Shown: positions 2,819 through 58,798 of the stretch, piece after piece
How positions within the stretch are numbered: the stretch's first letter is position 1
How the letters are laid out: every line of letters starts with the position of its first letter
Source: Patescibacteria group bacterium
Lineage (GTDB): Bacteria > Patescibacteriota > Patescibacteriia > UBA11705 > DATKZF01
Reading direction: 5' to 3'
Length of the DNA stretch: 64,000 nucleotides
NCBI GenBank assembly: GCA_049319825.1
Contig: JBMORT010000006.1
Location: 299,641 to 363,640, forward strand
Position numbers and translations under genes: made by a program
Notes under the pieces: generated by a model
The model's input: only the letters and a program-made list of their open reading frames with translations
Told to the model about the DNA's origin: nothing
The model's database searches: none

Positions 2819-4141
2819 TTATAATAATTGCACTCCTTCCGAAATCGTCTTTATGGCGCTGATTTTCATCTTGCCCTCGTATTTGGTGCCAAAAGGCACG
2901 ATAGCGGCCTCAAAACCCAATTTTTCGCCTTCTTTGAGGCGTTTTTCAGCCTGTTTTACAGCTCTGACCTCACCGGCCAGGCCCACTTCGCCGAAAACCA
3001 GAGTCTTGGGATTGAGTGTTTGGTTTGACAAAGCAGAGGCGCAGGACAGAGCGACCGCCAAGTCCAAAGCGGTTTCTTTTATTTTAAATCCGCCGGTAAC
3101 ATTGAGGTGAACATCCTGGTTGTTGAAGTTTAGGTTGGCGCGCCTGGTTAAGACTGCCAAAAGAAGCTGCAACCGATTTAAATCATAGCCGCTTGATTTT
3201 CTTTGCGGATATCCGAACACAGTTTGGTTCACCAGCGCCTGGACTTCGACTAAAAAGCATCGCGATCCTTCAATGGCTGCGCTGGTCACTGTGCCGGCAA
3301 CATCAATCGGAGCAGGGGAGAGAAATATTTTTGACGGATTTTCGACAATTTGCAAACCTTGTCCGGTCATTTCAAAAATCAATAATTCATTTGTTGAGCC
3401 AAACCTATTTTTTATTGACCTTAAAATTCTCAAATCGGAATTTCGCTCGCCTTCGAGATAAAACACGGCGTCAACCAAATGCTCGAGCGTTTTCGGGCCG
3501 GCAATGGCGCCGTCTTTGGTAATATGGCCGATTAAAATTAAGGCAATGTTTTTCTTTTTCGCCAATTCCAAAAGTTTTACCGCAATGGATTTGATCTGGG
3601 AAATATTTCCGGGCTCGCCTTCGATTTCCGATGAATAAATTGTCTGAATCGAATCAATGATGGCGATTTTCGGATTGGAAGTTTCCAAATGGTAAAGAAT
3701 ATCTTCAAGCGAATTGGTATTTAAAATTTTTAAGTTGCTGATGCTCAATCTTTGGGCACGCAATTTTATTTGTTGCGCAGACTCTTCGCCACTGACATAA
3801 AGCGAGTCTTGGTTGAACTTGCTTAAAAGCTGAAGCGTAATCGTGGACTTGCCAATGCCCGGCTCACCGCCAATTAAAAGAAGGCTGCCTTCCACCAGCC
3901 CCCCTCCGAGAAATTGATCAAAGTCCGGCAAGCCGGATTTCATCCGCTCCAGCTTAATATTGTCTATTTCAGCGAGTGAAACAATCTTAGATTCCATTTT
4001 GCCTACTGCCTTCTGCCCACCTGCCTGCCGGTCAGGCAGGCTGCCTACTGCCTTTTCGATTGTTCCCCAAGCCTGGCACTCGGGACAGCGTCCGGACCAT
4101 TTTGTAAATTGCGAATCGCATTTGGAGCAGGTGTAGAGCAT
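2819..4141 (-). CDS. radA: DNA repair protein RadA/Sms
   Basis: N-terminal C4 zinc finger (CSKCDSQ...CPECQAW), Walker A GEPGIGKST, KNRFG motif, Lon-like C-terminus. Confidence 0.9.
   Translation of the reverse strand: MLYTCSKCDSQFTKWSGRCPECQAWGTIEKAVGSLPDRQAGGQKAVGKMESKIVSLAEIDNIKLERMKSGLPDFDQFLGGGLVEGSLLLIGGEPGIGKSTITLQLLSKFNQDSLYVSGEESAQQIKLRAQRLSISNLKILNTNSLEDILYHLETSNPKIAIIDSIQTIYSSEIEGEPGNISQIKSIAVKLLELAKKKNIALILIGHITKDGAIAGPKTLEHLVDAVFYLEGERNSDLRILRSIKNRFGSTNELLIFEMTGQGLQIVENPSKIFLSPAPIDVAGTVTSAAIEGSRCFLVEVQALVNQTVFGYPQRKSSGYDLNRLQLLLAVLTRRANLNFNNQDVHLNVTGGFKIKETALDLAVALSCASALSNQTLNPKTLVFGEVGLAGEVRAVKQAEKRLKEGEKLGFEAAIVPFGTKYEGKMKISAIKTISEGVQLL
3999..4052. repeat. Palindromic repeat (CCTGCCTGCCGGTCAGGCAGG core, CTACTGCC flanks), inserted in-frame in the radA linker
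   Basis: Near-identical copies at 56641-56692 and 58685-58798; variant at 31664-31702. Confidence 0.8.
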
Positions 4142-7173: not shown

Positions 7174-7874
7174 CTAGAGTAATCCCACAAAGTTTAATAT
7201 AATCAGGACGATCAGCAGCATGAAAACAAACCACCAACAACAAGGGTTGCAGCAGGTTGCGGGAGCCAGTGCGCTGATTATCTGCGCCAGCCGTTTAGCC
7301 AGTTTTTTCAATTGATCGGCAACATCTCCGGCTTCGCCTTCGCCCGCTGGCGCGCTGCCGCGAAATCCGATTCTGGAAATTAAGCCACGACCGTCCGATT
7401 CGGGCGCGCCGCCGCCGGCCACCGACTTTTTGGGTTTCTCGCCCGCACCGATATCAGTCCGTGCAGTTTTTTTGGCCGCGGCTTTTTCGCGGCGCAATTC
7501 ATCGGCTTTTCGCGCTTCTTCCATTTTTTCCGGCTCGTATGACGGCGCTATTCCCGGGGCGGCTTCGCTCGGCGCCGGCCGCTCCGGAGACGAGGGAGTC
7601 GGCCGCTCGGCGGCGCTCATCGGCGCGCTGCCCGGCGGCCCGGCTTGCTCGGGACGCTGGGCTTCGGTGCCGGGTTTTTGAATGCCCGGTTCCCGTTCAG
7701 TCTCACCGGGTGCTGTTTGTTCTTGTCCTGCTTCCGGCGGCGGCTCAGATTCAGTGGCGTTGGCTGCTTGTTCCTGGCGCCCTCTCCGAAGATTTGGCAT
7801 TGGCGCGTCCGGCCTGGTCTGAAGCCCTTTTGCGCTGAATGAGCCTGATTTTTTATTTGATTTTTTTTCTGCCA

Positions 7875-7875
<1 letters not shown>
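7174..7875 (-). CDS. Intrinsically disordered Pro/Ala/Glu-rich protein with a C-terminal TM anchor (CCNPCCWW...), start overlapping the clpC stop (TAATG)
   Basis: Low-complexity composition; single C-terminal hydrophobic helix; its ATG overlaps the upstream clpC stop by 1 nt. Confidence 0.5.
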
Positions 7876-11444: not shown

Positions 11445-11499
11445 AGGTTAATTGGTCATGGAGCATGGAGCATGAATCATGGATCAATATAATATTTAT

Positions 11500-18814: not shown

Positions 18815-19198
18815 TGGATGACGGAAATTTCTAATATCTAATATCTAATTTCTAAATAATTTCTAATGAACAATGTCTAATGAAACAATTGAATCATTGG
18901 TCATTAGTTATCGGTCATGAATTAGAAATTAGAGCAATCCCGAAGTGACCCGTTCAGGGTTAAAAATTAGAAATTCGTTTATCGCCCCCTCGACTTCGCT
19001 CGGGGCAGGCTTTCGCCTTTCAACAATCAACCACGAGCCGAAGGCTTCCCTTCGGGAAAGTGGCCACTTGGTGGCAATTAACAATTAACCTCATAACCTC
19101 TTAACCTCGTAACGTCGTAACCTCATAACATCTTAACCATTTTTCCTTTTAACGCCTTTAACGTATTTAACGCTTTTAATGTATTTAACACATACACT

Positions 19199-20203
19199 AT
19201 GCCTATAAAACTTGCCATCAACGGCTTTGGCCGAATCGGCCGGGCCGCGCTCAAATGCGCTTTAGAAAATAAAAAAATAAAAGTTGTCGCCATCAATGAC
19301 CTGGTTGATCCTAAAAATTTGGCTTACTTATTGCGATACGATACGGTTTACGGCCGCTACGATCGTCAAGTCCTGGCCGGGAAAGACCATTTGCAGATCG
19401 ATGATGTTAAAGTCCGGGCGTTTGCCGAAAAGGATCCGCAAAATCTGCCATGGAAAAAGCTGGGAGTCGATGTCGTTTTGGAATGCACCGGATTTTTCAC
19501 TGACAGCGAAGGCGCGCGCAAACATATTAAAGCCGGCGCCAAGCGGGTGATCATTTCCGCGCCGACCAAGTCTGAGGATTTGAATACATTCGTTGCCGGA
19601 GCCAATGAAAACAAGCTTTCAAAAAAAGATATTGTCCTGTCGAACGCTTCCTGCACCACCAATTGCGTGTCACCGGTTTTGGCCGTGCTCGAATCAAAGT
19701 TCGGCATTCAAAAAGCATTGATGAGCACGATTCATGCTTACACGGCCACGCAAAAATTGGTTGACGGCCCGGATCCCAAAGATCCGCGCCGCGGCCGGGC
19801 GGCAGCGCTCAATATCGTGCCGACGACCACCGGCGCGGCAGATGCGGTGGTGAAGACTTTACCGAGCTTAAAGGATAAATTTGACGGCATTTCAGTCAGA
19901 GTGCCGGTCGCTTGCGGCTCGCTTTCTGATTTTACATTGGTGTTAAAAAAGAAAGTATCGGCCGAGCAGGTCAATAAAGCTTTTATCGACGCGTCGAAAA
20001 CATTCCGCTATAAAGAAGTTTTGGGCGTATCCAAAGAACCGTTGGTTTCTTCGGACATTATCGGCACGACCCATTCAGCCATCGTTGATTTGGGATTCAC
20101 GCAAGTGGTTGACGGCGATTTGGTGAAGGTCCTGGCGTGGTATGATAATGAATACGCGTACAGCTATCATTTGGTGAAGATGGCGGAGATGTTGATTCAA
20201 TAA
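19199..20203 (+). CDS. gap: Glyceraldehyde-3-phosphate dehydrogenase
   Basis: NGFGRIGR NAD-binding motif; SNASCTTNC active site. Confidence 0.95.
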   Translation: MPIKLAINGFGRIGRAALKCALENKKIKVVAINDLVDPKNLAYLLRYDTVYGRYDRQVLAGKDHLQIDDVKVRAFAEKDPQNLPWKKLGVDVVLECTGFFTDSEGARKHIKAGAKRVIISAPTKSEDLNTFVAGANENKLSKKDIVLSNASCTTNCVSPVLAVLESKFGIQKALMSTIHAYTATQKLVDGPDPKDPRRGRAAALNIVPTTTGAADAVVKTLPSLKDKFDGISVRVPVACGSLSDFTLVLKKKVSAEQVNKAFIDASKTFRYKEVLGVSKEPLVSSDIIGTTHSAIVDLGFTQVVDGDLVKVLAWYDNEYAYSYHLVKMAEMLIQ

Positions 20204-20276
20204 GATTAAAAGTCAAAAGTTAAAAGGCAAAAGTCAAAAGTTGAATCGATAAGTTAAAAAGTTAAAAGCGAAAATC

Positions 20277-20336
20277 AGCAGAAAGCCCTGACCTGAATCG
20301 AATTTTATTCTGGTTCAGGCTTGCCTTTCTGCTTGC
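20277..20336 (+). terminator. Long GC hairpin downstream of gap (putative terminator)
   Basis: AGCAGAAAGCCCTGACC...GGTTCAGGCTTGCCTTTCTGCT inverted repeat; weak U-tract. Confidence 0.35.
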
Positions 20337-20386
20337 GAAAAATGTCCTATTTTAAAGTTTGAAAGTTTTGTCCGCGTGGTTTTTTT

Positions 20387-20887
20387 ATGAAAAAGAATGT
20401 TTTTCAGATATTTATCGTCGCCATTATTATCATTTTAATCGGTGTTTTGATATCTTTCAGCCAGAAAAGAAAGCCCCAGTTTGAATTAGTGAAAAGCGAA
20501 GCAAAACAGATACTGAAACTGATAGATCGGGCGGGCGATCTGGCGCTGGAAGCGGAAAAGGCCGCGCCAAATCCGCTGGCTTACGGAATATTTTTTAATT
20601 TTGACAGAGCAATATTATTCGCCGATAAAAATGAAAACAAAATTTTTGATGACGAAATCATTTCTGAATATCAGCTGAAAGAAAATATCAGATTGAATCA
20701 AGCGAAAATCGTTTATTATATCCCGCATAAAAAAGACATTGAATTTTGCGATCAATCCGGCCAATGCCACGGCGACCTTCATCCGACAGTCGGAATCGCG
20801 GACATAAAAACCGGCCGAGCCATGGAATTTCGCTTCGAGCAAAAGACGGGGAAGGTGGAATTAAGGGAGGTAGTCGATTCGTATTAA
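20387..20887 (+). CDS. Hypothetical protein with an N-terminal TM helix
   Basis: ORF with hydrophobic N-terminus; no recognised motifs. Confidence 0.4.
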   Translation: MKKNVFQIFIVAIIIILIGVLISFSQKRKPQFELVKSEAKQILKLIDRAGDLALEAEKAAPNPLAYGIFFNFDRAILFADKNENKIFDDEIISEYQLKENIRLNQAKIVYYIPHKKDIEFCDQSGQCHGDLHPTVGIADIKTGRAMEFRFEQKTGKVELREVVDSY

Positions 20888-20889
20888 AG

Positions 20890-23322
<2,433 letters not shown>

Positions 23323-23521
23323 ATCAAATAGCAAAGCTCGCCCCGAGCAACGTCGAGGGGATTAAATGGCAAAGCAACCTCTCGACTACGCTCGAGGCAG
23401 GAAGAATAAAGAGCAAATATTTTTGTTTTTTTGTTTTAAACTTATTTCTATTGCTTTTCTCTTTGCTCTTTTATCTTTGATCTAAATAAAAAACCGCCAA
23501 AGTGTTTGGCGGGATTGAAAT

Positions 23522-25015
23522 TCATGGGAATTGAAGCTCGAGTTCGAGCTCAATACTAGAATTTTGGTATTCTTCGTTCCAATCGAATTCGGTCACCGAA
23601 GTGACCGCGTCTCCGATGTGGCCGGGCAATCCGGCTTGGTAGTAGTCTCGAAAGACGTGGAAGGGCAGCAGCTTGATCCTTTCGGCGCTGGTGCCCGGAT
23701 ACAGCAGTTCAAGTAGCGACGCGGGCATAACCGGCCTGACTGTCAGGCCTTCGCTGACCACGTAGAGCGTGTCTTCTTCGACCACGCCGGTGACGTACAC
23801 CCCGGGTCGAAAGAGCACCACTCCGCCGATGAGGAATGTGTTGAAGACCTCATCCGGCAGCTGATAGACTTGATTGCACGCATCATGATACGTCGCTTCA
23901 GGCAGACCGCTTTCGTCCAGCGGCGCGTACCACGAGTCGAGCACGCTGGAGACGGGGAAGACATACAGTCTGCCGTTTGACGCCGCGTAATACACTCGGC
24001 TCATCCAGCTGTTTTTTACCAGCATGCCCGCTTGCGGCTCGTCTGTCTCGCGGAACGTGCCGCAGCAGCCTTGATAGCCGTAAAGATAGCTATTATCGGG
24101 CGACATCACGATCTCGCAGTATTCGGCATGCGTCGGCTGGCATTCTTCGTCAATTCGGCCGTCGCAGTTGTCGTCGAAATCGTTGCCGCAGATCTCTTCT
24201 GCTCCGGCCGACGTCCAGCTTTCGGGAAAATCTCCGCCACTGCAGGCGTACTCGGAGTTTTCGCTCGGAGCGCAGACGATCACGCCCGGATTGGCGCAGG
24301 TTCCGTCTTCGTTAAACCCGACGCATTCTTCATAAAGCCGGTCAAAGCCCTCGTCGGTCTCGCAGTCGCAGTCGTCATCGAGGTAGTTGCAGATTTCCTC
24401 TGACGGTTCATAGCCGTCCGCGCACAGGCCGCACAGAGGCGGCTGGCAGTCTTCGTCAATTTCGCCGTCGCAGTCACTGTCAATGCCATCGCAGTCGTCA
24501 GGCAATTGCCAACGGTAAGGAGTCGAATATCGGGAAGTGAAATCTGCCGAAGAGCAGGTCAAAGGTTCGTATGGAGCATTTCCACAAATAATTTCACCCA
24601 AATCAGTGCAATGTCCCAGCAAGTACTTGCCGCGAAGATCCACATAGCCGCGGCAAGGCTGTCCGAGCCATTCCTGCCAGTCCTCATCGGTCTGACAATC
24701 GCAGTCGTCATCGAGTCCGTTGCAGGTCTCTTTGGCCGCTTCGTGTCCTTGGGCGCAGATGCCGCACCCCGGATCGGGCCGCGAAGCCTCATCAGCCGCG
24801 CTGTCTCCGGGAATCAAATCGTCAGTGAATGTTCCCCGATCGGTCTGGCCGGCATCGCGGTCAGGCAGAATATTTCCATTTCCCGAAGCAGGGTAAAGAT
24901 AGATGATTTCCGGAACACCTTGCTCGAGCCTGGGTCCGGGCCTGTTTTCGGTGATTACGCAGCTGATTGTCAAAATCAGAAATACGAAAATGAACATGGC
25001 GATGATTTTCTTCAT
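23522..25015 (-). CDS. Secreted Cys-rich protein with MopE-like CDGxDNDCDGxxDEG repeats and a shared C-terminal domain
   Basis: Signal peptide; multiple CxxxDDDCDxxxDE motifs; C-terminal ~250 aa homologous to the C-terminus of the 25377-27686 protein; ~60% GC. Confidence 0.7.
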   Translation of the reverse strand: MKKIIAMFIFVFLILTISCVITENRPGPRLEQGVPEIIYLYPASGNGNILPDRDAGQTDRGTFTDDLIPGDSAADEASRPDPGCGICAQGHEAAKETCNGLDDDCDCQTDEDWQEWLGQPCRGYVDLRGKYLLGHCTDLGEIICGNAPYEPLTCSSADFTSRYSTPYRWQLPDDCDGIDSDCDGEIDEDCQPPLCGLCADGYEPSEEICNYLDDDCDCETDEGFDRLYEECVGFNEDGTCANPGVIVCAPSENSEYACSGGDFPESWTSAGAEEICGNDFDDNCDGRIDEECQPTHAEYCEIVMSPDNSYLYGYQGCCGTFRETDEPQAGMLVKNSWMSRVYYAASNGRLYVFPVSSVLDSWYAPLDESGLPEATYHDACNQVYQLPDEVFNTFLIGGVVLFRPGVYVTGVVEEDTLYVVSEGLTVRPVMPASLLELLYPGTSAERIKLLPFHVFRDYYQAGLPGHIGDAVTSVTEFDWNEEYQNSSIELELELQFP

Positions 25016-25376
25016 CGGCGGTTGCTCCTTTTGTGAAAGAACCGTTAAAGAATCCTGATTTGTGCGAGATCAAATCGTGAATCTTCAGCGGTCATTTCAG
25101 GAATAATAAACATTAACAGAAATTTAATATTTTGTCAATTTTCTGTTTGACATTCTCTACTTATATTATACCAAAAAATTGTGAATTATATGAATAGTGG
25201 CTGAAAATATTAAGGATTTATCAGATGAATTATAGAATAATAAATGTTTTTTCAGAATTTGTGTCAATATTATAGAATTAAAAAACCTACCTAGTTGTTA
25301 ACCGGGTAGGTTTCTCCTTTTTGAAAGGGATTTGCCGCAGAAATTGCGGCTGGGAAGGAGTTACTGGGGGCGGAAA

Positions 25377-27686
25377 TTACTGACACAGAGTGCCGCTGAT
25401 CCCCAGCTCGACTTCGATCTGGCTTTCCGAGTAAATCGTGAGCCAGTCAAAGTCAGCGGCTGAGGTCACGGGCTGGCCGATTTCGTAATTCGACCACATC
25501 AGCGACCAAAGGACGACTGTCCTTTCCCATGCCGTCGATCCTTCGGTCGACGCGTAGATTTCGTCCAGCGCGGTGATCGGATCAACCTCGCGAAGCGTCG
25601 CGCAGTGATCGACCACGTACCGCGCGCTCGATGTCTCTTCTCCCGTGATGAAAGCTCCGGGACGAAGAGTGACGTTTCCAGTGAGCGCCAAGGGAATCGA
25701 AGCGAGTACTTCGTCGGGGAATTCGTAAACTTGCTGGCAGAGCTCGCCGTTCGGCGACGCGGGGATGCCGTATTCGTCGAGCGGCGAATACCATGATTCG
25801 AGCTCGACATTGGTCGCGAACACGTAGCGGTTCCCGTCGCTGGCGTAGTAGTAGACGTTGCTGAAAGTTCCCTTGATCAGCATACCTGCTTCGGGATGCG
25901 TCGTAGTCAGAAAGCTGTCGCCGCAGCAGCCGCGCCAGCCGATGATGGTGCCGTACGCGGTGTAGACTGGCTCGCAGTAGTGCGGTGGTTCGTCCGCTCC
26001 GCAACCCTCGTCCACGATGCCGTCGCAGTCATCGTCGATCCAGTTATCGCAGTAGTCCTCGGCGTAGCAGAGCGCTGGATCGGGGGAGCAGCGGTAGTTC
26101 ATGACGTCGTGGCTGCATTCCCATCGGCCGTTAACCGGCACGTAGCTGACGATTCCTTCTTCATCGGGAATCGTATTGATTGCGACGCACAGAGATCCGA
26201 CGCTTGGATCGTTCTCGTCTGTTTCACCGTCGCCATCTTCATCGACGCCGTTGCACAGGTCAAGCGGTTCTTGGCACTGTGGCAAATCAGCGCAGTCCGG
26301 GTCGAAGCAACAGACAAGTCCGTCGCCGTCCCCGTCGTTTTGACAATGCCACTCACAGCTCTGCTCGCCGATCGAGTCGCCGTAGCGGCATTCTGTCCAA
26401 ATTCCGTTTTCGCACGTCTGCCAGCCATAGAAGAATTCGCCGGCAGGCATGGCATGGCCGCAATGGCGATCCCAAATCGTTTCGGAAGGATCCACGCACG
26501 GGCAGCCGTCGTCGATGGCGTGATCGTTATCGTTATCCACGCCGTCGCACTCCTCTTCGGCCGGACAATCGACTTGGCAGGTGAAAACATCCTCTGTTGA
26601 ATTGCAGATGCCGTTTCCACAGCACCCTTCGTCGATCTGGCCGTCGCAATTATTATCATCGCCGTCGCAGATTTCTTCCGCGCCGGGGTAAGTCAGGGCG
26701 AAATTGTCGTCGCAGTCGTTGTCGTAGCCCTCGATCCAGTTGATGTAACCCTCTAGAGGAGACAAACAATCGGCCGCTTCGACGTAGCTTTCGGGATCCC
26801 CGTGCCCGTCGCCATCCGCGTCGCGCAGAAAGCGCTGGGTCGGGTACCCTTCATCGGTCAGCCCGTCGCAGTCGTTATCTTTCCCGTCGCAGAATTCGTC
26901 CGCGCCGGGGTGGGTGAAGAAATTGAAATCATCGCAGTCCTCGGGCGGCGAGTAGCCGTCGCTGTCCACGTCGGTCTGCGTGGAAAAGCAGTCGACGCAT
27001 ACGTCGGCTTCGCCCGCTTCGCAGATGCCGTTGCCGCAGACCGCCCCGCAGCCCTCGTCCACCTGGCCGTCGCAGTTGTCGTCGATACCGTGTCCGACGA
27101 CGCCGCAAAGTTCTTCCCGCGCATGGCACTCTTCCAGATCGATGGGAGGACACCTGATGTCTCCCAGTATGCAGGTGAGAACTCCCGGGACAGGGACGAA
27201 ATCGAGCAGCGCGAAGCAGTCTTGGCCGGCGATAGGGTCACTCTCGTCCGTCTGGCCGTCGCAGTTGTCATCTACCCCGTTGCAGTACTCGACAGCCAGC
27301 GGGTTGATGTTGAAATCATCATCGTTGCAGTCGCCGTCGAAAGGCGTGAACCCGTCGTTGTCCTCGTCAAAGTCGGGGACCGGACAGCCCTCGTCCGTGA
27401 CGCCGTCGTTGTCGTTGTCGATCTCGTCGCAGATTTCGGGGTTGTCGTAGGGCAGGGGGACGCATCCCGCGCCGATAAGGGTCGTGCCCTCGTCGCAGTA
27501 GATGATCGGTGCGGGATTGCCGTCGAGCACGCAGACTCCGTTGATTTCGACAGTGCCCGGCCCGCATTCGAGGCTGGCGGCGTCGGTCTCGATGACCTGG
27601 CGCGTGGAAGCGCCGTCGCCGCAATTGAAGTTGAAACAGAAAAACCAGAACAGAGACACGAAAAACGAAAAGCGATGCAGTCTCAT
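25377..27686 (-). CDS. Large secreted Cys-rich protein with many MopE-like CDGxDNDCDGxxDEG repeats
   Basis: Signal peptide; more than 8 repeat units; C-terminal domain (YCEPVYTAYGTIIGWRGCCG...) paralogous to the 23522 protein; ~65% GC. Confidence 0.7.
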   Translation of the reverse strand: MRLHRFSFFVSLFWFFCFNFNCGDGASTRQVIETDAASLECGPGTVEINGVCVLDGNPAPIIYCDEGTTLIGAGCVPLPYDNPEICDEIDNDNDGVTDEGCPVPDFDEDNDGFTPFDGDCNDDDFNINPLAVEYCNGVDDNCDGQTDESDPIAGQDCFALLDFVPVPGVLTCILGDIRCPPIDLEECHAREELCGVVGHGIDDNCDGQVDEGCGAVCGNGICEAGEADVCVDCFSTQTDVDSDGYSPPEDCDDFNFFTHPGADEFCDGKDNDCDGLTDEGYPTQRFLRDADGDGHGDPESYVEAADCLSPLEGYINWIEGYDNDCDDNFALTYPGAEEICDGDDNNCDGQIDEGCCGNGICNSTEDVFTCQVDCPAEEECDGVDNDNDHAIDDGCPCVDPSETIWDRHCGHAMPAGEFFYGWQTCENGIWTECRYGDSIGEQSCEWHCQNDGDGDGLVCCFDPDCADLPQCQEPLDLCNGVDEDGDGETDENDPSVGSLCVAINTIPDEEGIVSYVPVNGRWECSHDVMNYRCSPDPALCYAEDYCDNWIDDDCDGIVDEGCGADEPPHYCEPVYTAYGTIIGWRGCCGDSFLTTTHPEAGMLIKGTFSNVYYYASDGNRYVFATNVELESWYSPLDEYGIPASPNGELCQQVYEFPDEVLASIPLALTGNVTLRPGAFITGEETSSARYVVDHCATLREVDPITALDEIYASTEGSTAWERTVVLWSLMWSNYEIGQPVTSAADFDWLTIYSESQIEVELGISGTLCQ

Positions 27687-27796
27687 GCTTCTCTCCTTGT
27701 GCCCGCGCCGCGGGCGTTTTTTTGAGTTTGATTTTCAATTGTCGAAGAACTTTATTCCCGGCTTTGCCCAATACCTACACTAGGCAGAACCCGAAA

Positions 27797-27824
27797 CCCA
27801 ACATCGCCGTGGCGAGTTGGGGGG
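27797..27824 (-). terminator. CCCAAC...GTTGGG hairpin downstream of the 27844 gene
   Basis: cccaacatcgccgtggcgagttgggggg; same stem family as 28323, 28643, 28692, 29615, 30305, 31070. Confidence 0.5.
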
Positions 27825-27843
27825 ACTGAGTTGCTTAAGTTGG

Positions 27844-28233
27844 TCAGGCCGCTTTTTTCACCGAAGCTTCTAGTGAACCAGCAGCGCCTTCCAAATGTCG
27901 CAATACAGACAGTGACGGCATTTGCATTACGTGAGAATTTGTCGGATCTGGAAAAAATGCAAATCGTTCAGTGCTTGTCGATGTCCGTAGATCTGTATGT
28001 TCATCGGCCGCGCGGCGCAGCATGATGCCCATCTGGCCGTGAAGTAAAAAGAAAATCGATCCGTAGATACAGCCGAGAAAGATCATCGAAGAGAGAATGA
28101 CGAAAAGCATGGCAAAGTCATACTCTGGCACTTTGAGCGCGATGTGGACGATAAGGCAAATCATAACGAGCATCATGATGCTCGAAGTGATAAGAATGAA
28201 TAAAGCGATTGTCCACTTGGCGCGATCCGGCAT
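27844..28233 (-). CDS. Small polytopic membrane protein (hypothetical)
   Basis: 3 TM helices; lies within the GC-rich island. Confidence 0.4.
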   Translation of the reverse strand: MPDRAKWTIALFILITSSIMMLVMICLIVHIALKVPEYDFAMLFVILSSMIFLGCIYGSIFFLLHGQMGIMLRRAADEHTDLRTSTSTERFAFFPDPTNSHVMQMPSLSVLRHLEGAAGSLEASVKKAA

Positions 28234-28309
28234 TGATCCTCCTTGGTATCTCCCGTTTGAGTGCTTGTCGCGGGAAGAATTTCCCGGATTTATTGATTAA
28301 TGTTAATCA

Positions 28310-28365
28310 GCAAATCTGGAAGCCCAACAAATGAGAGTTGGGCGAAAGGGTGGGAAATTAGGCGG
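28310..28365 (-). terminator. Conserved CCCAAC-N-GTTGGG hairpin element (GGAAGCCCAACA.GTGAGAGTTGGGCGAAAGGGTGGGAAA)
   Basis: Three near-identical copies (28310-28365, 28635-28680, 31055-31110), each immediately 3' of a minus-strand gene. Confidence 0.5.
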
Positions 28366-28366
28366 G

Positions 28367-28576
28367 TTAGTAGCCGGGGACGAACGATCCGTCCACCGGC
28401 CGTCCGTTGATGAAGATCTTGGTCCAATCCATCCCTGGATCGTCGAAGCTCGAGCAAAGGAGCTCGACTTTCTCTCCTCGAGCCAGGGCTACCTCGACCT
28501 CCCTGAAGACTTTCGGCTGAAGGAACAGCCGGTGGTTGTCGAGGTCGTCCTTTGTGAACGGTTGCAGGTAGGGCAT
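28367..28576 (-). CDS. Small hypothetical protein (69 aa)
   Basis: ORF bounded by the conserved hairpin elements; low confidence. Confidence 0.3.
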   Translation of the reverse strand: MPYLQPFTKDDLDNHRLFLQPKVFREVEVALARGEKVELLCSSFDDPGMDWTKIFINGRPVDGSFVPGY

Positions 28577-28691
28577 TTAAACCTCCTTGGTTAATGAATT
28601 TCCCGGCTCTGCTTAGTATCATTTACCAAACAAAGCTGGGAGCCCAATAAGTGAGAGTTGGGCGAAAAGGTGGGAAAGAGCGGTGAGGTTA

Positions 28692-28729
28692 GGCCGGCCC
28701 CCAACACGCAAAGTTTTGCGGTTGGGGGG
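28692..28729 (-). terminator. GGCCCCCAAC...GTTGGGGGG hairpin downstream of the lipoprotein gene
   Basis: Imperfect inverted repeat; a copy at 29615-29649 and a related one at 30305-30337. Confidence 0.5.
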
Positions 28730-28743
28730 AGAGGGGAGAATGA

Positions 28744-29526
28744 CTACGGTGATGGACATCCCTCATCGGTCTGGCCGTCGCAGTCGTTGTCGATGCCGTC
28801 GCAGGCCTCGCCCAGCGGCCCACAAGTGCCGCAGGCGTTGAGCAGTCCTTCGTCGACGTCGCCGTCGCAGTCATTGTCAACGCCGTCGCAGACCTCCGCG
28901 GGCACCGGCCCGCACAGACCGCACGCGTTGAGCAGATACTCGTCCACGTCGCCGTCGCAGTCATTGTCCGCGCCGTCGCAGACTTCCGTTTCCGGCATAA
29001 CTCCATTGCAGTCAGACCATTCCCAGTTCACGCAGGTCTGTGTCCCGATCACGCATTCACCTGTCTCCACACCGCACACGATTGTTTCGCCGTTCCTGCA
29101 AAGGCATCCTTCATCCGCGACGCCATTGCAATTGTTGTCAAAGCCGTCGCAGAGTTCCTCGCTTGGCTTGGACGCGCCAATGCACCTGTCAAACCACGCG
29201 CCATTAACACAAACTTGCGTTCCTGCCATTCGTACGTTCGTATCCGTGCAGCAGGGGCGAGTACTCTCGATGACGCATTCGCAACCCTCATCGATGAGTC
29301 CGTCGCAGTCGTTGTCCAGCGTGTCGCAGATTTCTTCTTTGGGCTTTCTGCCGTCGCAGTCGGACCAGCCGCCGTTGACGCAGGTCTGCTTGCCGATGGA
29401 ACACTCGCCCAGCTCAGTACCACATTTCTGCGTCGCGCCGTCTTTGCACGGTGGCGCGCTGGCCGCCATCGATTGTTGTTCGCTGATCAAAAACACCAGA
29501 GCGAAAATCGCCATCAGCTTCTTCAT
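28744..29526 (-). CDS. Lipoprotein/secreted protein with MopE-like CDGxDNDCDGxxDEG repeats
   Basis: MKKLMAIFALVFLI signal preceded by a GGAGG Shine-Dalgarno site; the annotated upstream extension is the conserved leader; 6 Cys-repeat units. Confidence 0.65.
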   Translation of the reverse strand: MKKLMAIFALVFLISEQQSMAASAPPCKDGATQKCGTELGECSIGKQTCVNGGWSDCDGRKPKEEICDTLDNDCDGLIDEGCECVIESTRPCCTDTNVRMAGTQVCVNGAWFDRCIGASKPSEELCDGFDNNCNGVADEGCLCRNGETIVCGVETGECVIGTQTCVNWEWSDCNGVMPETEVCDGADNDCDGDVDEYLLNACGLCGPVPAEVCDGVDNDCDGDVDEGLLNACGTCGPLGEACDGIDNDCDGQTDEGCPSP

Positions 29527-29615
29527 TGACGTTCTCCTCCCCCGATTCCTCGGGAGTTTTGGGTTTGAAAGAACTCTTTCCGAACTTTGCTTGCTAAAAT
29601 TACCGAGCAAAGTTC
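29527..29615 (-). promoter_or_regulatory. Conserved structured 5' leader (12-bp stem CCGAACTTTGCT/AGCAAAGTTCGG, then GGGGGAGG Shine-Dalgarno)
   Basis: ~85% identical to 30219-30305, which lies upstream of the paralogous lipoprotein gene. Confidence 0.5.
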
Positions 29616-29657
29616 GGCCCCCAACATGCAAAGTTTTGCGGTTGGGGGGAGAGGGGA

Positions 29658-30218
29658 CTAATGCGAGCAGCCCTCATCGATACGGTCGTCGCAGTCGTCA
29701 TCGATGCTGTTGCCGCAAACTTCTTCCGGCACGGGACCGCACGTCCCGCACGCGTTTAAAAGTCCTTCATCGACGTTGCCGTCGCAATCGTTGTCTTTGC
29801 CATCGCAGATCTCGACGCTCCGGCCGACGTGGGTTCCGCAACAAGCGCTCCACAGGCCTTGTCCGTTCCCAATGTCAATAATGTCAATGCAGACCTGAGT
29901 TGCGAACACGTTCTCCTCGCCGCACTGACGAGTTTCGCCGATGGTACACTGGCAGCCTTCGTCGATCGCGCCGTCGCAGTTGTTGTCGAGGCTGTCGCAG
30001 CTTTCTTTGACCGGACCGCGGTACTTTCCACCGCAATCAGTCCATGTGCCCATGACGCAGACCTGATGGCCAGGGATGCACGCCCCAAGATCCTTGCCGC
30101 ACGGGCGAGTCTCGCCTTCGGCGCACAAGATGATCTTCTGCGGCTCGGGCATAAGCTGTTCTTTCTTACAACCTCCGAAAGCCACAACCAGCACAAGCGA
30201 GAGCATCAGCTTCTTCAT
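29658..30218 (-). CDS. Lipoprotein with MopE-like Cys repeats (paralogue of the 28744 gene)
   Basis: MKKLMLSLVLVVAFGGC lipobox; CDGKDNDCDGNVDEG units. Confidence 0.65.
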   Translation of the reverse strand: MKKLMLSLVLVVAFGGCKKEQLMPEPQKIILCAEGETRPCGKDLGACIPGHQVCVMGTWTDCGGKYRGPVKESCDSLDNNCDGAIDEGCQCTIGETRQCGEENVFATQVCIDIIDIGNGQGLWSACCGTHVGRSVEICDGKDNDCDGNVDEGLLNACGTCGPVPEEVCGNSIDDDCDDRIDEGCSH

Positions 30219-30305
30219 CTGATTTTTCCTCCCCCGATTTTTCGGGAGTTTTGGGTTTGAAAGAACTCTTTCCGAACTTTGCCAAGTAGAATTTACCGAG
30301 CAAAG
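30219..30305 (-). promoter_or_regulatory. Second copy of the conserved structured 5' leader
   Basis: Same stem-loop and Shine-Dalgarno as 29527-29615. Confidence 0.5.
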
Positions 30306-30401
30306 TTCGGCCCCCAACTTTTTTGAAGAGTTGGGGGAAGATTTTGTGCATTTGCCGCGGATGCGCGGCTGTGGGAAAGTAAATGGAAGAGAAGGAAGAT
30401 G

Positions 30402-30986
30402 CTAGGAGGCCGCCTGGATCGTCGTGTCCTCGCTGATGAGCAGGCGGCGCGGGTGGCGGAGGAACTGCTTGGGCTGGCGGGTGTAGCGCTTCCAGCCGCG
30501 GGGGAACAGACGCCACTCGTAGCGGCGGATCCGGTAGCAGTCGAGCTCGCTCCACAGCGCTCGGCGCATGCCGATCTGCCGCGGGGAGCACTGGATGCGG
30601 AAGCCGTTGATCGGCTCCGGCTCGCGCTGGGGCAGCGGGGTGGGGGGCTCGATCGGGGTGGCGGCGGCCTTGAGCGGGGCGTCGAACACCTCGCACCAGG
30701 CCTCGTAGTCGCTGTCGTCCTCGGTGTCGGCGTAGAACTCCTCGGCCGCCGGCTCGAAGGCGTCGTCGATCTCGACCTCGTCCAGGCGATCGCTGTCGAT
30801 CATGTCGATCAGCTCGTCCTCGACGTCCCCGTACTCGGCCAAGGTGGTCAGCGGCGCGCGCCAGACGCCATCGGAGCCGCGGATGCCGAAGAACCGCGGG
30901 TGGCAGTCTTCGACCTCCGGGTCGCCATCGACGAAACGGAACGCCTTGTCGAGCTCGTTGTAGCCCAGGATCCTGAGAGCGCTCAT
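30402..30986 (-). CDS. Acidic hypothetical protein (island gene)
   Basis: 194-aa ORF, D/E-rich, GC-rich codon usage. Confidence 0.4.
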   Translation of the reverse strand: MSALRILGYNELDKAFRFVDGDPEVEDCHPRFFGIRGSDGVWRAPLTTLAEYGDVEDELIDMIDSDRLDEVEIDDAFEPAAEEFYADTEDDSDYEAWCEVFDAPLKAAATPIEPPTPLPQREPEPINGFRIQCSPRQIGMRRALWSELDCYRIRRYEWRLFPRGWKRYTRQPKQFLRHPRRLLISEDTTIQAAS

Positions 30987-31116
30987 GGCATTTCCTTTCC
31001 TAAAAAAAATTATTGTGATTGTACTACTTCCCTGATCTGCCGATTATTTCTACTCGGCAAATCTGGAAGCCCAACAGGTGTAGTTGGGCGGTAGGGTGGG
31101 AAAGAACAGCGGGGAG

Positions 31117-31434
31117 CTAGAGCCCGAGAATGGCGGCGCGGCGGCCGGTGGCGCGGGTGGGGCCTTCGTCGCCCCAGGCGGTGAGGATGAGATCGCATTC
31201 CCTCTCGAGAGCTTCGCGGACGAGGTCCTCTTTCTCGGCGGGGGTGGGCGGCGGGGGATCCCAGTCGAAGGAGTCACCGCACCGGCACATTTCGTAGGAA
31301 AAGCCGCAATCCGGACAGTAGTCGGGAGCGGGCGTGGGCGCCTCCGGCTCGGGGCAGTCCGGTGCGTCCAGGTAGTCGTAGCACGAATCGGACTGAGAGG
31401 CGGGACAGTCGCAACAATTGACCTTGCAATCCAT
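31117..31434 (-). CDS. Small acidic Cys-rich protein (CCDC...CPDC...CRC)
   Basis: 105-aa ORF with 10 Cys and Pro-rich linkers; followed 3' by a conserved hairpin. Confidence 0.4.
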   Translation of the reverse strand: MDCKVNCCDCPASQSDSCYDYLDAPDCPEPEAPTPAPDYCPDCGFSYEMCRCGDSFDWDPPPPTPAEKEDLVREALERECDLILTAWGDEGPTRATGRRAAILGL

Positions 31435-31737
31435 TGGTTTCCTCCTTGAAAAAAGCCCTTAAAAAGGGCGGTTTTCCCCTCCATGTTTTTCTAAAATATC
31501 ATTTTATTATAGCATAAATATGAATAAAAATCAAGCCAAAAAGCCAAATATTGGCTTAATTTAGGGGAGTTTTACGCATTGTGAGGATCAAAAAAGCAAG
31601 AGAGAAAAAGGAGGTTGCGTTTGCTCGGAGAAGGCGGGTGTCCGGATGGCTTTTTTCTGGATTCCTGCCTGCCTGCCGGCCGGCAGGCAGGCCTGCGCAG
31701 GAATGACCGAATAATGGGCAGAGAGACTATCAGAAAG

Positions 31738-31915
31738 GGATTTCTCCACTCCGCTCCCCCTCGGCTTGGCTCGGGGTCGCTCCGGTCGAAATGACGAAAG
31801 GGGGTCTGGCGATGTTCCGTGAAGGTGTTCGGGGCTTGTAAAAAGGGATTTCTCCACTCGGTCTCGCTACGCTCGACCTCGGTCGAAATGACCGAAAGGG
31901 CGCGGCGAGGGTATA
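31738..31915. repeat. Two tandem solo copies of the GIY-YIG-associated repeat (AGGGATTTCTCCAC...CCCTCG.C...GTCGAAATGAC)
   Basis: Matches the inverted repeats flanking the GIY-YIG gene at 53320-53890; related cores at 18970-19000 and 23375-23400. Confidence 0.7.
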
Positions 31916-32066
31916 AAAAGAGTGGATTCTTATTTGGTTGAATTAGTTGGTTATGCTATAATTTATACAGAATTTCGACATTTAAAAAAGCACATAGCCT
32001 TGGAGTTGATCCATGATCCATGATCCATGATCCATGATCCATGATATGTGCTCCATGTTTTTAGTT

Positions 32067-32369: not shown

Positions 32370-32544
32370 ATACTATTTTTTAAAATTTAATTACAAATAA
32401 TTACAAATATTACGAATATTTTTTAGGATTTAATTACAAATAATTACAAATATTACGAAGATTTTACAGGATTTAATTACAAATAATTACGAATTATTAC
32501 AAATATTATTAATATAATTTTTGTTACAAATAATTACAAATGAA
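32370..32544. repeat. AT-rich tandem repeat array (TAATTACAAA / ATTACGAA units)
   Basis: More than 10 units; similar TTACAAAT arrays at 10310-10375, 16370-16390 and 32930-33000. Confidence 0.7.
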
Positions 32545-32928
32545 ATGGAAGAAGACGAATTAATTTACGGGGAATTGAGTTATAAACTGATGGGAGTAAT
32601 TTTTAATGTTCATAATGAATTGGGCGGCGGAATGAAAGAAAAATATTATCAGCGAGCGATTGAAAAAGCATTGGATTAAAAAAACATATCTTACAAGAGT
32701 CAGATGATGATTCCAATTAATTATAAAACTCATAATATTGGTTGTTATCGTCCTGATTTAATAATCGAAAATAAAATCGTGTTGGAAATAAAAGTAGGTT
32801 TCGGGTTTTCAAAAGCAGATTTGAATCAGCTCCATCAATATTTAATCAAAACGGGCTTGAAATTGGGAATATTAGTTGTCTTTTCAAAGAAGAAAGTAAT
32901 TCACACGAGAGTCTTAAATCTTTATTGA
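32545..32928 (+). pseudogene. GxxExxY family (PD-(D/E)xK-like) gene interrupted by an in-frame TAA at ~32677
   Basis: N-terminal 44 aa ending GGGMKEKYYQRAIEKALD*, then the same frame resumes as ...NYKTHNIGCYRPDLIIENKIVLEIK...LKLGILVVF, which is the family's C-terminal half. Confidence 0.55.
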
Positions 32929-33042
32929 AGCATTTATGCGAAAGTATCAAATTTTATTGGAATATTCGTAATTATTTGTAATTTTTTTAAAAATTTTTTA
33001 AAAAAGAATTTGTAATAAAAATTTGAAAAAGAAGAATGTCGT

Positions 33043-35033: not shown

Positions 35034-35429
35034 ATGAATGATAATGACGTAAAGAAAAATTTTTCTCATAAGAATATGGTTGTCTGGCAGAGTATTGATC
35101 AGTTAGATATGATTGTTCAGGATATTTTAAAAAATATTTCAAAAAATGAATTTAAAATTAGAAGTCAAATAGCTAATGCCTCTGATTCAATCGGCGCCAA
35201 CTTTGTTGAGGGGTATTATAGCGGATATATAGCCGAATACATCAGATTTTTGAGAATTAGCAAAAGATCAAATGGCGAATTACAAGAAAGAGTGCGTCGA
35301 GTTTTACGAAAAGGATACATTGATGATGATTTGTATAAACACTTCGAAGACCGCGCTATTAAAACGATGTATCTATTAGATAGAACGATCCAATCTTTAG
35401 AAGATAAGAAAGAAAAAGAGAACAAGTGA
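35034..35429 (+). CDS. Four-helix-bundle protein (TIGR02436; 23S rRNA IVS-type)
   Basis: VWQ...SQIANASDSIGANFVEGYY...EYIRFLRISKRSNGELQ motifs. Confidence 0.7.
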   Translation: MNDNDVKKNFSHKNMVVWQSIDQLDMIVQDILKNISKNEFKIRSQIANASDSIGANFVEGYYSGYIAEYIRFLRISKRSNGELQERVRRVLRKGYIDDDLYKHFEDRAIKTMYLLDRTIQSLEDKKEKENK

Positions 35430-53319: not shown

Positions 53320-53890
53320 ATTTCGATCGGAGGGCCGACAAAAGAGGCCCTGAGTGCAGAAATTTTTTTAATACCTTCCTCCACTATCGGTCATTTCGAC
53401 CAAGCCCGGAGGGCGCGTGGAGAAATCCCTTTTTAAAAACCCTCAGCCAGATCTTTCCATCCCGGATTATCCATTGAAATAAGTATTTCTTTTTTATCTC
53501 TTCTCCATCGTTTGATTTGTTTTTCCCGGGCGATGGCATCCGTGGGGTTATCAAAGACTTCGTAGTGAACTAATTTGTGCCATTGGTATCTTTTGGTGAA
53601 ACATTCATTGATATCATTTTTATGTTCGCTAACTCTTCTTTCAATATCATTTGTCATGCCGATGTATAGTGTTCCGCTTTCGCTGGCCATGATGTAGGTG
53701 TAGTAGTCGTTGGGCATAGTTTTTGAAAATATTATTACGAAGGGATTTCTCCATTCCGCTCCCCCTCGACTCCGCTCGGGGTCGCTCCAGTCGAAATGAC
53801 CGGTTGGGACTTCGCTCCGCTCAGTCGGCGACCTGTCCTGAGCCGTGTCGAGCGAATGCAGGAATCCAGGAAAAATCATCTGGACACCTG
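53320..53890 (-). mobile_element. GIY-YIG mini-element: gene flanked by inverted repeats (CGGTCATTTCGA...GGAGAAATCCCT / AGGGATTTCTCC...TCGAAATGACCG)
   Basis: Inverted repeats at 53325-53432 and 53741-53830; solo copies at 31738-31915. Confidence 0.6.
53433..53717 (-). CDS. GIY-YIG nuclease family protein (paralogue of 20936-21226)
   Basis: MPNDYYTYIMASESGTLYIGMTNDIERRVSEHK; the upstream ORF extension lies in the inverted repeat. Confidence 0.7.
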   Translation of the reverse strand: MPNDYYTYIMASESGTLYIGMTNDIERRVSEHKNDINECFTKRYQWHKLVHYEVFDNPTDAIAREKQIKRWRRDKKEILISMDNPGWKDLAEGF

Positions 53891-56640: not shown

Positions 56641-56692
56641 ACTACTGCCTACCTGCCTGCCGGTCAGGCAGGCTGCCTCTTGCCTACTGCCT
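56641..56692. repeat. CTACTGCC/CCTGCCTGCCGGTCAGGCAGG palindromic repeat (copy)
   Basis: See 3999-4052. Confidence 0.8.
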
Positions 56693-58684: not shown

Positions 58685-58798
58685 GCTACTGCCTACCTGC
58701 CTGCCGGTCAGGCAGGCTGCCGCTGGCCTGCCAGCCGCCCTGTCCACCGAAGCCGCAGCGAAGGTGGAAGCTGTTGCGAAGGCTGGCCTACTGCCTAA
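58685..58798. repeat. CTACTGCC/CCTGCCTGCCGGTCAGGCAGG palindromic repeat (extended copy)
   Basis: See 3999-4052. Confidence 0.8.

Follow-up and report, generated by a model that had tools for sequence, protein, structure and literature searches.

A GC-rich cluster of MopE-repeat genes between gatC and ligA in a Patescibacteria genome: inherited envelope operon or recent island?

The locus described here raises the question of whether a block of genes rich in guanine plus cytosine (GC) and encoding cysteine-rich repeat proteins was recently imported or belongs to the inheritance of its host, and what its products might do at the cell surface. The block lies in a stretch of 64,000 nucleotides (referred to as the window) from contig JBMORT010000006.1 of the Patescibacteria group bacterium assembly GCA_049319825.1, positions 299,641 to 363,640 of the forward strand. 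Between gatC and ligA, at 23,522-31,434, eight consecutive open reading frames (ORFs), all on the minus strand and each equipped with a Shine-Dalgarno sequence, are transcribed opposite to all neighbours; they are numbered g1 to g8 from the left coordinate. An original prediction, made from the sequence alone, had identified these eight consecutive minus-strand genes and interpreted their composition, paralogy and boundary repeats as the marks of a horizontally acquired surface module. In the present analysis the preferred reading, to which a probability of roughly 0.55 is assigned, is that the block constitutes an inherited, fast-evolving envelope operon whose exported MopE-repeat stalks stand on the cell surface and probably mediate attachment. 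The host, a tiny and probably symbiotic bacterium, had been taken for a member of the candidate phyla radiation, in agreement with NCBI, where the proteins identical to g7 (hypothetical protein ACOZBH_03690) and to g5 ('MopE-related protein [Patescibacteria group bacterium]') are both named 'Patescibacteria group bacterium'. The eight genes are as follows:

23522-25015, minus strand: g1, 497 amino acids, predicted to be exported, isoelectric point (pI) 4.05, 29 Cys, 4 MopE-type motifs, with a copy of the shared domain in the C-terminal ~200 amino acids
25377-27686, minus strand: g2, 769 amino acids, predicted to be exported, acidic, 60 Cys, 7 MopE-type motifs, with the shared domain at residues ~565-769
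27844-28233, minus strand: g3, 129 amino acids, small membrane protein with hydrophobic N-terminal helices, strong ribosome-binding site, host-like GC of 0.47
28367-28576, minus strand: g4, 69 amino acids, small, without signal peptide, ribosome-binding site AAGGAGG 6 nucleotides upstream
28744-29526, minus strand: g5, 260 amino acids, secreted MopE-related protein by its sequence, 32 Cys, 5 motifs
29658-30218, minus strand: g6, 186 amino acids, MopE-related lipoprotein by its sequence, 21 Cys, 3 motifs, tandem paralogue of g5
30402-30986, minus strand: g7, 194 amino acids, pI 4.6, acidic N-terminus, basic C-terminus, without signal peptide, GC 0.69, GC at third codon positions (GC3) 0.96
31117-31434, minus strand: g8, 105 amino acids, pI 4.05, 11 Cys, CPDC..CRC, without signal peptide, first gene of the cluster

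None of the eight proteins had a credible match in NCBIfam, PHROGs or PADLOC; in Pfam, too, g3, g4 and g8 matched no family, and neither g2 nor gatC was recovered from the contig collection by exact search.

The composition of this island departs strongly from that of its surroundings. Its GC content is 0.561 against 0.441 for the rest, which makes it the highest 8-kb window on the contig, and its tetranucleotide distance (x10^-3) amounts to 40-48 against 15.0 ± 2.3 outside, a deviation of more than 10 standard deviations; the aberrant composition noticed at first sight is thereby borne out when both measures are compared with the rest of the contig. The figure of 60-68% GC originally given for the block was nevertheless overstated, being reached only locally in 300-nucleotide windows, where the MopE genes lie at 54-65%, g7 peaks at 72%, g3 stands at 47% and the g2-g1 spacer falls to 28%. 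At third codon positions, seven of the eight genes have a GC3 of 0.65-0.96, above the host maximum (40 host ORFs, 0.50 ± 0.08, maximum 0.64). With host codon usage, a GC of 0.51-0.53 would be expected for the MopE genes, for which 0.56-0.60 is observed at a host mean of 0.453; for g7, the expected and observed values are 0.53 and 0.69. In the MopE genes, the abundance of Cys, Asp, Gly and Ala in the proteins accounts for about half of the GC excess and a preference for GC-ending codons for the other half, and the excess of g7 is nearly all codon usage.

The age of this offset can be judged from a relative. The closest g2 homologue, P0004 (1325 amino acids), is encoded on a 621-kb contig of GCA_035528115.1 at a locus (L006) that is collinear with the window, nucleotide identity lying at 70-80%, with values of 80.6% for ligA, 76.5% for GAPDH, 72.8% for gatA and 71.6% for the M50 protease; P0005 and P0010 are further g2 orthologues. 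Exactly between gatC and ligA, L006 carries a GC-rich block as well (0.56-0.61, flanks 0.37-0.48), which is likewise oriented opposite to its neighbours and consists of three genes, namely a 157-amino-acid acidic/basic ORF, a 1333-amino-acid MopE protein and a Cys-rich lipoprotein. In the 1333-amino-acid ORF, the counterparts of g2 and of the N-terminal half of g1 are fused into one gene; g2 is 72% identical to it at the nucleotide level within the C-terminal domain and 60% identical in overall amino-acid sequence. At fourfold-degenerate sites of identical residues, the comparison of the window with L006 gives an identity of 0.48-0.52 for housekeeping genes and 0.41 for g2, synonymous sites thus being about half diverged, and in both genomes the island orthologues (GC3 0.75/0.79) stand above their neighbours (0.51-0.59). 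A third such cluster, at locus L013, has a GC3 of 0.70-0.72 behind a promoter region of 32% GC. Sequence comparison therefore indicates that the GC offset is an old, maintained property and not the mark of a recent transfer, because an island occupies the same site in a diverged relative, the GC3 offset is present in both, and no mobility marks accompany it. While the site was kept, its gene content has been reshuffled: genes were split or fused, the C-terminal domain was duplicated, and small genes were gained or lost.

From 12730 to 46930 of the window, all long ORFs lie on the plus strand and the cumulative GC skew rises, the eight island genes being the sole exception. The cluster appears to be kept head-on to the presumed direction of replication, and the L006 island is likewise inverted.

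The repeats that characterize the island are found in four of its products. A Pfam search matched PF11617 (Cu-binding_MopE) to g1 (E-value 5.7e-10, 39.7 bits), g2 (1.9e-32, 111.6 bits), g5 (4.3e-23, 81.7 bits) and g6 (2.4e-11, 44.1 bits), all above the gathering score of 27 bits, and a strict DxDCDGxxDE-type regular expression found 4, 7, 5 and 3 copies, respectively; both results uphold the MopE-like repeats first proposed by eye. These proteins have a pI of about 4.05, contain 18-22% Asp+Glu and display DxDxDxD-like loops. A protein identical to g1, with the N-terminus MKKIIAMFIFVFLILTISC, is called on contig L002 of the Logan collection (SRR32167788). The genes g5 and g6 are tandem paralogues with 47% amino-acid identity and 86% identical upstream DNA; together with the domain common to g1 and g2 and the repeated intergenic modules described below, this pair confirms the internal duplication that had been suspected. 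In the AlphaFold2 model of g5, small beta-hairpin modules are strung between loop-rich MopE motifs, with a mean predicted local distance difference test (pLDDT) of 77 and a predicted template-modelling score (pTM) of 0.41; a Foldseek search with this model found no PDB neighbour below E 0.9.

Signal peptides and lipoboxes were judged by eye from the N-terminal sequences. The lipobox of g6 (AFGG↓C) fits the signal peptidase II pattern [LVI][ASTVI][GAS]C, g5 has a signal peptide of signal peptidase I type (SMA↓AS), its first Cys comes no earlier than residue 27 and a lipobox is absent, and the sequences at the signal ends of g1 (LTISC) and g2 (FNFNCG) are atypical for a lipobox, which leaves these two signals ambiguous. 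Hence, of the two lipoproteins that had been announced, g6 stands and g5 is by its sequence a secreted protein. The combination of signal peptides or a lipobox with acidic, Cys-rich PF11617 repeats agrees with the secreted or surface module that had been envisaged.

A word-indexed search with g5 returned 1,476 homologues, the best non-self ones being 42-51% identical. Those that bear names come from Deltaproteobacteria, Myxococcota, Polyangia, Bradymonadia (a 'Notch-like protein'), Patescibacteria, Falkowbacteria, Uhrbacteria and a Woesearchaeote, so that, judged by these named homologues, MopE-type repeats are indeed common in Myxococcota, as had been stated; a literature search found no published link between such repeats and Patescibacteria. 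PF11617 'MopE-related' proteins of Myxococcota, Bradymonadia and many uncultured lineages array the same CxDGxDNDCDGxxDE motif in exported acidic proteins. Unlike in those proteins, the repeats of g1 and g2 are fused to a domain of ~200 amino acids that is typical of Patescibacteria, and MopE repeats accompany this domain in only 4 of its 148 best matches.

The C-terminal domain shared by g1 and g2 was rightly recognized as common to both, at a length of ~200 and not ~250 amino acids, and shows 41% identity between the two proteins. A word-indexed search retrieved one relative, P0001, a lipoprotein of 269 amino acids that consists of a linker and the domain with little else, and a scan of 1.84 billion cluster representatives with a hidden Markov model retrieved 2,788 proteins at E<=1e-3, of which 1,603 remain at E<=1e-10; the domain is not covered by any Pfam model. 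Where members of this family or their genome loci bear a name, it is mostly Patescibacteria, Parcubacteria or Uhrbacteria, the exceptions being two metagenome-assembled genomes (MAGs) from the Third Party Annotation section labelled Gammaproteobacteria (loci L009 and L012) and the g2 orthologue P0004, labelled Candidatus Bipolaricaulota. A domain so typical of Patescibacteria speaks against an import from Myxococcota. Among the 148 best matches, the domain stands at the C-terminus in 73, at the N-terminus in 47, as the whole protein in 16 and internally in 12, so that it is terminal in 136, and 60 have a lipobox-like N-terminus; its partner domains are extracellular (Big_1, fn3, beta-helix, DUF3048). 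AlphaFold2, supplied with an alignment of 34 sequences, models the domain with a pLDDT of 94.9 and a pTM of 0.90. The invariant or near-invariant residues comprise four Cys, several aromatics, two Arg and Gly/Pro, with no catalytic-looking set.

A search of the PDB with the domain profile found no sequence relative, the only matches being spurious ones to nanobodies. The model bears a weak partial likeness, over about 50-66 residues at a Foldseek E of 0.08, to the wall-binding folds of PlyCB and EccB (PDB 4f87, 3x3m) and to endolysin wall-binding domains; in contrast to PlyCB and EccB, with which it has no sequence relationship, the domain possesses four conserved Cys and an extra N-terminal lobe. 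Because of its terminal placement, its extracellular partner domains and this weak resemblance in fold, the domain is read as a putative binding module, possibly for cell-wall glycans.

Lipoproteins carrying this domain were also seen in other settings. At L007, L008, L010, L011 and L012, with L009 excepted, the domain lipoprotein adjoins a gene that, to judge by inspection of its N-terminal sequence, probably encodes fructose-bisphosphate aldolase; the domain matches at about 8001-8600 in L007-L011 and at 546-1112 in L012. In the five aldolase-linked loci, the lipoprotein and usually 2-3 unknown neighbours have a GC3 of 0.63-0.77, compared with roughly 0.45-0.68 for the other genes. These loci form a second, different GC-elevated surface-gene block, and since the aldolase-linked lipoproteins, too, exceed most of their neighbours in GC, high GC in such surface genes appears to be recurrent in the group. 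P0001 itself lies on L001, a contig of SRR22387919 (2549 nucleotides, GC 0.63), next to a 404-amino-acid lipoprotein; L001 may be another GC-rich block or may come from a truly GC-rich host.

Taken as an inherited envelope operon, the cluster would function as follows. A canonical sigma-70 promoter in AT-rich DNA would drive g8 and g7, which encode small, presumably cytoplasmic acidic proteins; g6 to g2 would come next, each behind a structured hairpin/promoter-like module that recurs with some variation, and g1 would have its own AT-rich promoter. The products of g1, g2, g5 and g6 would be exported by the Sec pathway as very acidic PF11617 repeat proteins, whose repeats may form disulfide-knotted, rod-like surface stalks that, to go by the DxDxD-type pattern, are probably stabilized by Ca2+. 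In g1 and g2 the stalk would end in the alpha/beta domain of ~200 amino acids that belongs to the large, mainly Patescibacteria family, and this terminal domain may bind glycan or cell wall, either as a tether to the cell's own wall or as a grip on the wall of a host cell. On this view the cluster as a whole would serve for adhesion or as a surface coat.

The elements that might control such expression lie between the genes and are listed from the head of the cluster to its end:

31534-31506, minus strand: cluster promoter TTGATT-17-TATAAT with extended TG, from a sequence scan
31469-31455, minus strand: terminator-like hairpin in the g8 leader, GCCCTTTTTAAGGGC then T6, a perfect hairpin between the cluster promoter and the ribosome-binding site
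31047-31103, minus strand: conserved module upstream of g7, covariance-model score 72 bits, RNA fold z = -7.0
30290-30339, minus strand: hairpin and module upstream of g6, covariance-model E 0.021, not a training sequence
29597-29661, minus strand: hairpin and module upstream of g5, RNA fold z = -6.0, weak covariance-model match at E 0.2
28620-28726, minus strand: g5-g4 intergenic region, with the long hairpin CCCCCAAC..GTTGGGGG at 28700-28726 and then the module at 28620-28677 (74.6 bits)
28300-28357, minus strand: module upstream of g3, with CU-rich box TTTCCCACC, hairpin GCCCAAC/GTTGGGC, TTTGCT and a -10-like box; covariance-model score 81.7 bits (training sequence), RNA fold z = -6.9
27797-27821, minus strand: hairpin CCCAAC-N13-GTTGGG between g3 and g2, from a pattern search
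about 25311-25280, minus strand: terminator-like hairpin after g2, ACCTACC..GGTAGGT then T5, read from the sequence
25213-25165, minus strand: sigma-70-like promoters for g1, from a promoter scan
25016-25376, minus strand: AT-rich g2-g1 spacer, 28% GC
23512-23494, minus strand: intrinsic terminator after g1, CCGCCAAACACTTTGGCGG then T6, from a consensus scan

The hairpin CCCAAC-N-GTTGGG is present in each intergenic region from g8 to g2, giving six perfect copies against 0.03 expected, with none elsewhere in the window; it is confined to clusters of this kind. Three of the copies belong to a longer module made up of TTTCCCACC, GCCCAAC/GTTGGGC, TTTGCT, a TGnTAnAAT-like box, a second hairpin and GGGAAA, and this longer module also occurs in L006 and L013 with compensatory changes in the stem. 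A covariance model built from five copies found three further ones (E 0.002 to 0.2), all within these clusters and on the coding strand; in the module stems 96.8% of cells are paired and three of the seven pairs are changed on both sides, counts that are biased by the fitting of the alignment to the model. As RNA, the modules fold far better than shuffled sequences (z -3.2 to -7.0), and their sequences can also be read as having a promoter-like spacing, the -35 element TTGGGC lying in the 3' arm, 16-17 nucleotides before the -10-like box. On the coding strand, the CCCAAC/GTTGGG hairpins are followed by CTTCCAG or GGCCGAAC without U-tracts, and for that reason they do not qualify as classical terminators. 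True ones are confined to the ends of g1 and g2, the former being the terminator next to ligA that had been noted before. A search against Rfam 15 gave no match anywhere in the window. A metagenome scan for TTTCCCACC-N4-5-GCCCAAC yielded at least 120 matches, and since none completes the hairpin among the matches listed, these were set aside as chance matches. The g8-leader hairpin GCCCTTTTTAAGGGC could be an attenuator; the fold of the 80-nucleotide leader as a whole is no stronger than that of shuffled sequences (z 0.14).

Canonical promoters in AT-rich DNA also head the L006 and L013 clusters. The one detectable homologue of g7, P0152 (33% identity, pairwise E 5e-19), opens the L013 cluster behind a TTGATT-17-TATAAT promoter and is followed by a Cys-rich lipoprotein and a MopE lipoprotein. 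In L006, the 157-amino-acid acidic/basic ORF occupies the position of g7, with a similarity of E 0.18; at that value it was dropped as a supported homologue and is treated as a positional counterpart only. With this positional counterpart counted, the order of a g7-like gene, the hairpin module and then MopE lipoproteins is common to the window, L006 and L013. The same ORF as g8 is called on another Logan contig (L003, SRR32167788), and g7 and g8 are candidate cluster-specific cytoplasmic factors.

These recurring elements lend themselves to an alternative that is entertained only tentatively and is, on balance, somewhat unlikely. In it, the block would be a Patescibacteria-specific cassette, in which MopE-repeat exports are co-inherited with g7 (with or without g8) and with a hitherto undescribed structured cis-element of ~80-130 nucleotides before each gene, in which the CU-rich box is joined by two hairpins, the first of them covarying, and by the GGGAAA box. 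Both the strong GC3 bias and the head-on orientation would be under active maintenance and not relics of transfer, for example through biased gene conversion among repeats or through selection acting on the structure of the mRNA or on expression. The shared domain would be the long-missing module by which Patescibacteria surface proteins are anchored to the wall or bind the wall of a host.

A role in metal handling instead of adhesion, with repeats that bind copper or sequester Ca2+ or other cations, must be regarded as unlikely. Its support is mainly the Pfam name ('Cu-binding_MopE / putative metal-binding motif'), to which the extreme acidity of the proteins, their DxDxDxD-like loops and the Cys-rich cytoplasmic protein g8 may be added. 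However, PF11617 spans only a short motif of MopE and has low specificity (PMC6189053), and a similar motif is found in the cysteine-rich domain of teneurin and in other extracellular adhesion proteins (PMC3278476); since the motif is thus short and unspecific, copper binding is not implied. The likeness to teneurin and to eukaryotic CxDxxDNDxDGxxDC motifs is in turn one of motif only, with no evidence of common descent and with a different repeat number and context. Moreover, a phmmer search of g5 against all PDB chain sequences gave 0 matches at E<=1, and together with the fold search it revealed no homology, beyond the motif, to MopE/CorA of methanotrophs (Methylococcus MopE), while Pfam and NCBIfam disclosed no transporter, chaperone or metal regulator in the cluster.

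More improbable still is a recent foreign island, derived for instance from a GC-rich Myxococcota donor, in which composition and boundary repeats would mark the insertion. The strong compositional deviation (with a GC3 of 0.96 in g7), the abundance of PF11617 proteins among the named matches from Myxococcota and Deltaproteobacteria, and the frequency of genomic islands in Patescibacteria (PMC12455944) all speak in its favour. Half of the GC excess of the MopE genes, however, stems from amino-acid composition, the best non-self homologues of g5 reach only 42-51% identity and include Patescibacteria, distant phyla and Patescibacteria being named alike among matches of at most 51%, and the family of the C-terminal domain is typical of Patescibacteria. 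The repeats in question are located at the right border:

31600-31920, no strand: dispersed host repeats ('GIY-YIG-associated'), without a GIY-YIG gene

GIY-YIG domain genes are found at 20936-21226 and 53433-53879, and the right-flank repeats at 31728-31795 and 31832-31865 match DNA beside the latter (31728-31795 is 88% identical to 53733-53800). The GIY-YIG-type repeats noted at this boundary are therefore real, and by their sequence they are the host's own dispersed repeats and not the end of a mobile element. No integrase or transposase was found in Pfam, NCBIfam and PHROGs searches of the island, and a tRNA scan of the window found none. A candidate attachment (att)-like repeat linking both borders was also sought and not found: no direct repeat longer than 10 nucleotides is shared by the left and right flanks, the longest shared word being 10 nucleotides and lying within a host repeat. 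As a recent event, the horizontal acquisition that had been derived from composition and boundary repeats is contradicted by these results and by the orthologous island of L006, at the same gatC-ligA site and with the same GC3 offset across synonymous sites about half diverged. With the compositional islands of Patescibacteria (of the type found by IslandViewer; PMC12455944) the block has in common its atypical GC and tetranucleotide usage and its cell-surface cargo; it differs from them in lacking mobility genes and att sites, in occupying the same locus in a diverged relative and in its un-ameliorated composition, so that a composition-based caller would probably flag it wrongly as horizontal transfer.

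Some further sequences touch on this border. At 32006-32045, a heptamer run (GATCCAT x5) lies at the start codon of gatC, and an inverted imperfect copy of it occurs 20 kb away at 11451-11487. A palindromic dispersed repeat, CTGCCTGCCGGTCAGGCAGGC, is present at 4010-4053, 56642-56685 and 58686-58729 in copies that are 91-95% identical, and a related sequence, CCTGCCTGCCGGCCGGCAGGCAGG, is found at the right border of the island at 31660-31700.

A prophage remnant or an anti-phage defence island is highly improbable: small ORFs of unknown nature, repeated promoter-like modules and an atypical composition would suit it, but PHROGs and PADLOC have no match for the eight proteins, there is no integrase, the C-terminal domain has no relative in IMG/VR contigs, and four of the eight genes encode exported repeat proteins. 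Least credible, and practically dismissed, is an assembly or binning chimera that would have placed a GC-rich fragment of another organism on a Patescibacteria contig, a worry raised by the sharp GC steps at both borders, by the repeats on the right, a frequent point of breakage in assembly, and by the end of L003 in the ATCCATG repeat at 32035, but countered by the two independent Logan contigs that cross both borders at 100% identity (L002, uninterrupted over 19119-27086 from ligA through g1 into g2, and L003, over 30253-32035, joining g7 and g8 to the right-flank host repeats), by an independent MAG of another study with the same junction partners, and by the AT-rich, host-like outer promoters and spacers of the island.

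The reading as an inherited envelope operon, for its part, has several points to its disadvantage. The export signals of g1, g2, g5 and g6 rest on inspection by eye, and the function of the cluster is one that we infer from sequence. The intergenic module could act as DNA (promoter or operator) or as RNA, and the pair counts fit both. An ancient horizontal origin of the MopE genes may also lie behind the cluster, the nearest named homologues, at 42-51% identity, being a mixture of Myxococcota/Deltaproteobacteria and Patescibacteria. The argument from synteny depends on one close relative; in addition, NCBI labels GCA_035528115.1 'Candidatus Bipolaricaulota bacterium', as opposed to the Patescibacteria label of the MAG that contains the window, and one of these two labels is probably wrong.

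Part of this picture was known already, in that the repeat family is annotated and compositional islands in Patescibacteria have been described (PMC12455944). What is new is that the repeats are joined to a domain of a large family without a Pfam model, that a GC-rich block has been conserved at one fixed site with its composition un-ameliorated, and that the organization of g7 with the structured module recurs. Host recognition and attachment by the ultrasmall Patescibacteria are little understood, and the locus offers candidates in the form of cysteine-repeat stalks and of a domain family found at many surface-protein ends. It also calls for caution in composition-based calls of horizontal gene transfer, an island of extreme GC and tetranucleotide usage being present at the same locus across substantial synonymous divergence. 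Furthermore, the repeated structured module and the conserved g7 provide testable handles on regulation in a group where almost none has been characterized.

A few minor observations concern the neighbourhood of the island and the remainder of the window. Between gatC and gatA, a PDDEXK_3 (PD-(D/E)XK) gene is split by a stop codon into 32521-32679 and 32704-32928, and is intact (127 amino acids) in L006. This pseudogene is flanked, at 32374-32559 and 32961-33024, by AT-rich 43-nucleotide tandem repeats (about 20-30% GC; TATTTTTTAAAATTTAATTACAAATAATTACAAATATTACGAA, at least 3 copies) and an inverted partner. Genes for proteins of the 23S rRNA-intervening-sequence or bAvd-like kind lie a few kb from the island at 35034-35429 of the window and at 4615-6047 of L006; as regards a target of a diversity-generating retroelement, which they brought to mind, neither a reverse transcriptase nor a template repeat came to light in the stretch inspected, in which no search aimed at reverse transcriptase was made. 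Two more ORFs on the minus strand, at 7174-7875 and 59670-60482, stand at about 0.58-0.59 GC and match nothing in Pfam; one of them is Pro/Glu/Ala-rich with a C-terminal membrane anchor after CCNPCCWW, and the other, of 270 amino acids, contains many CxxC pairs.

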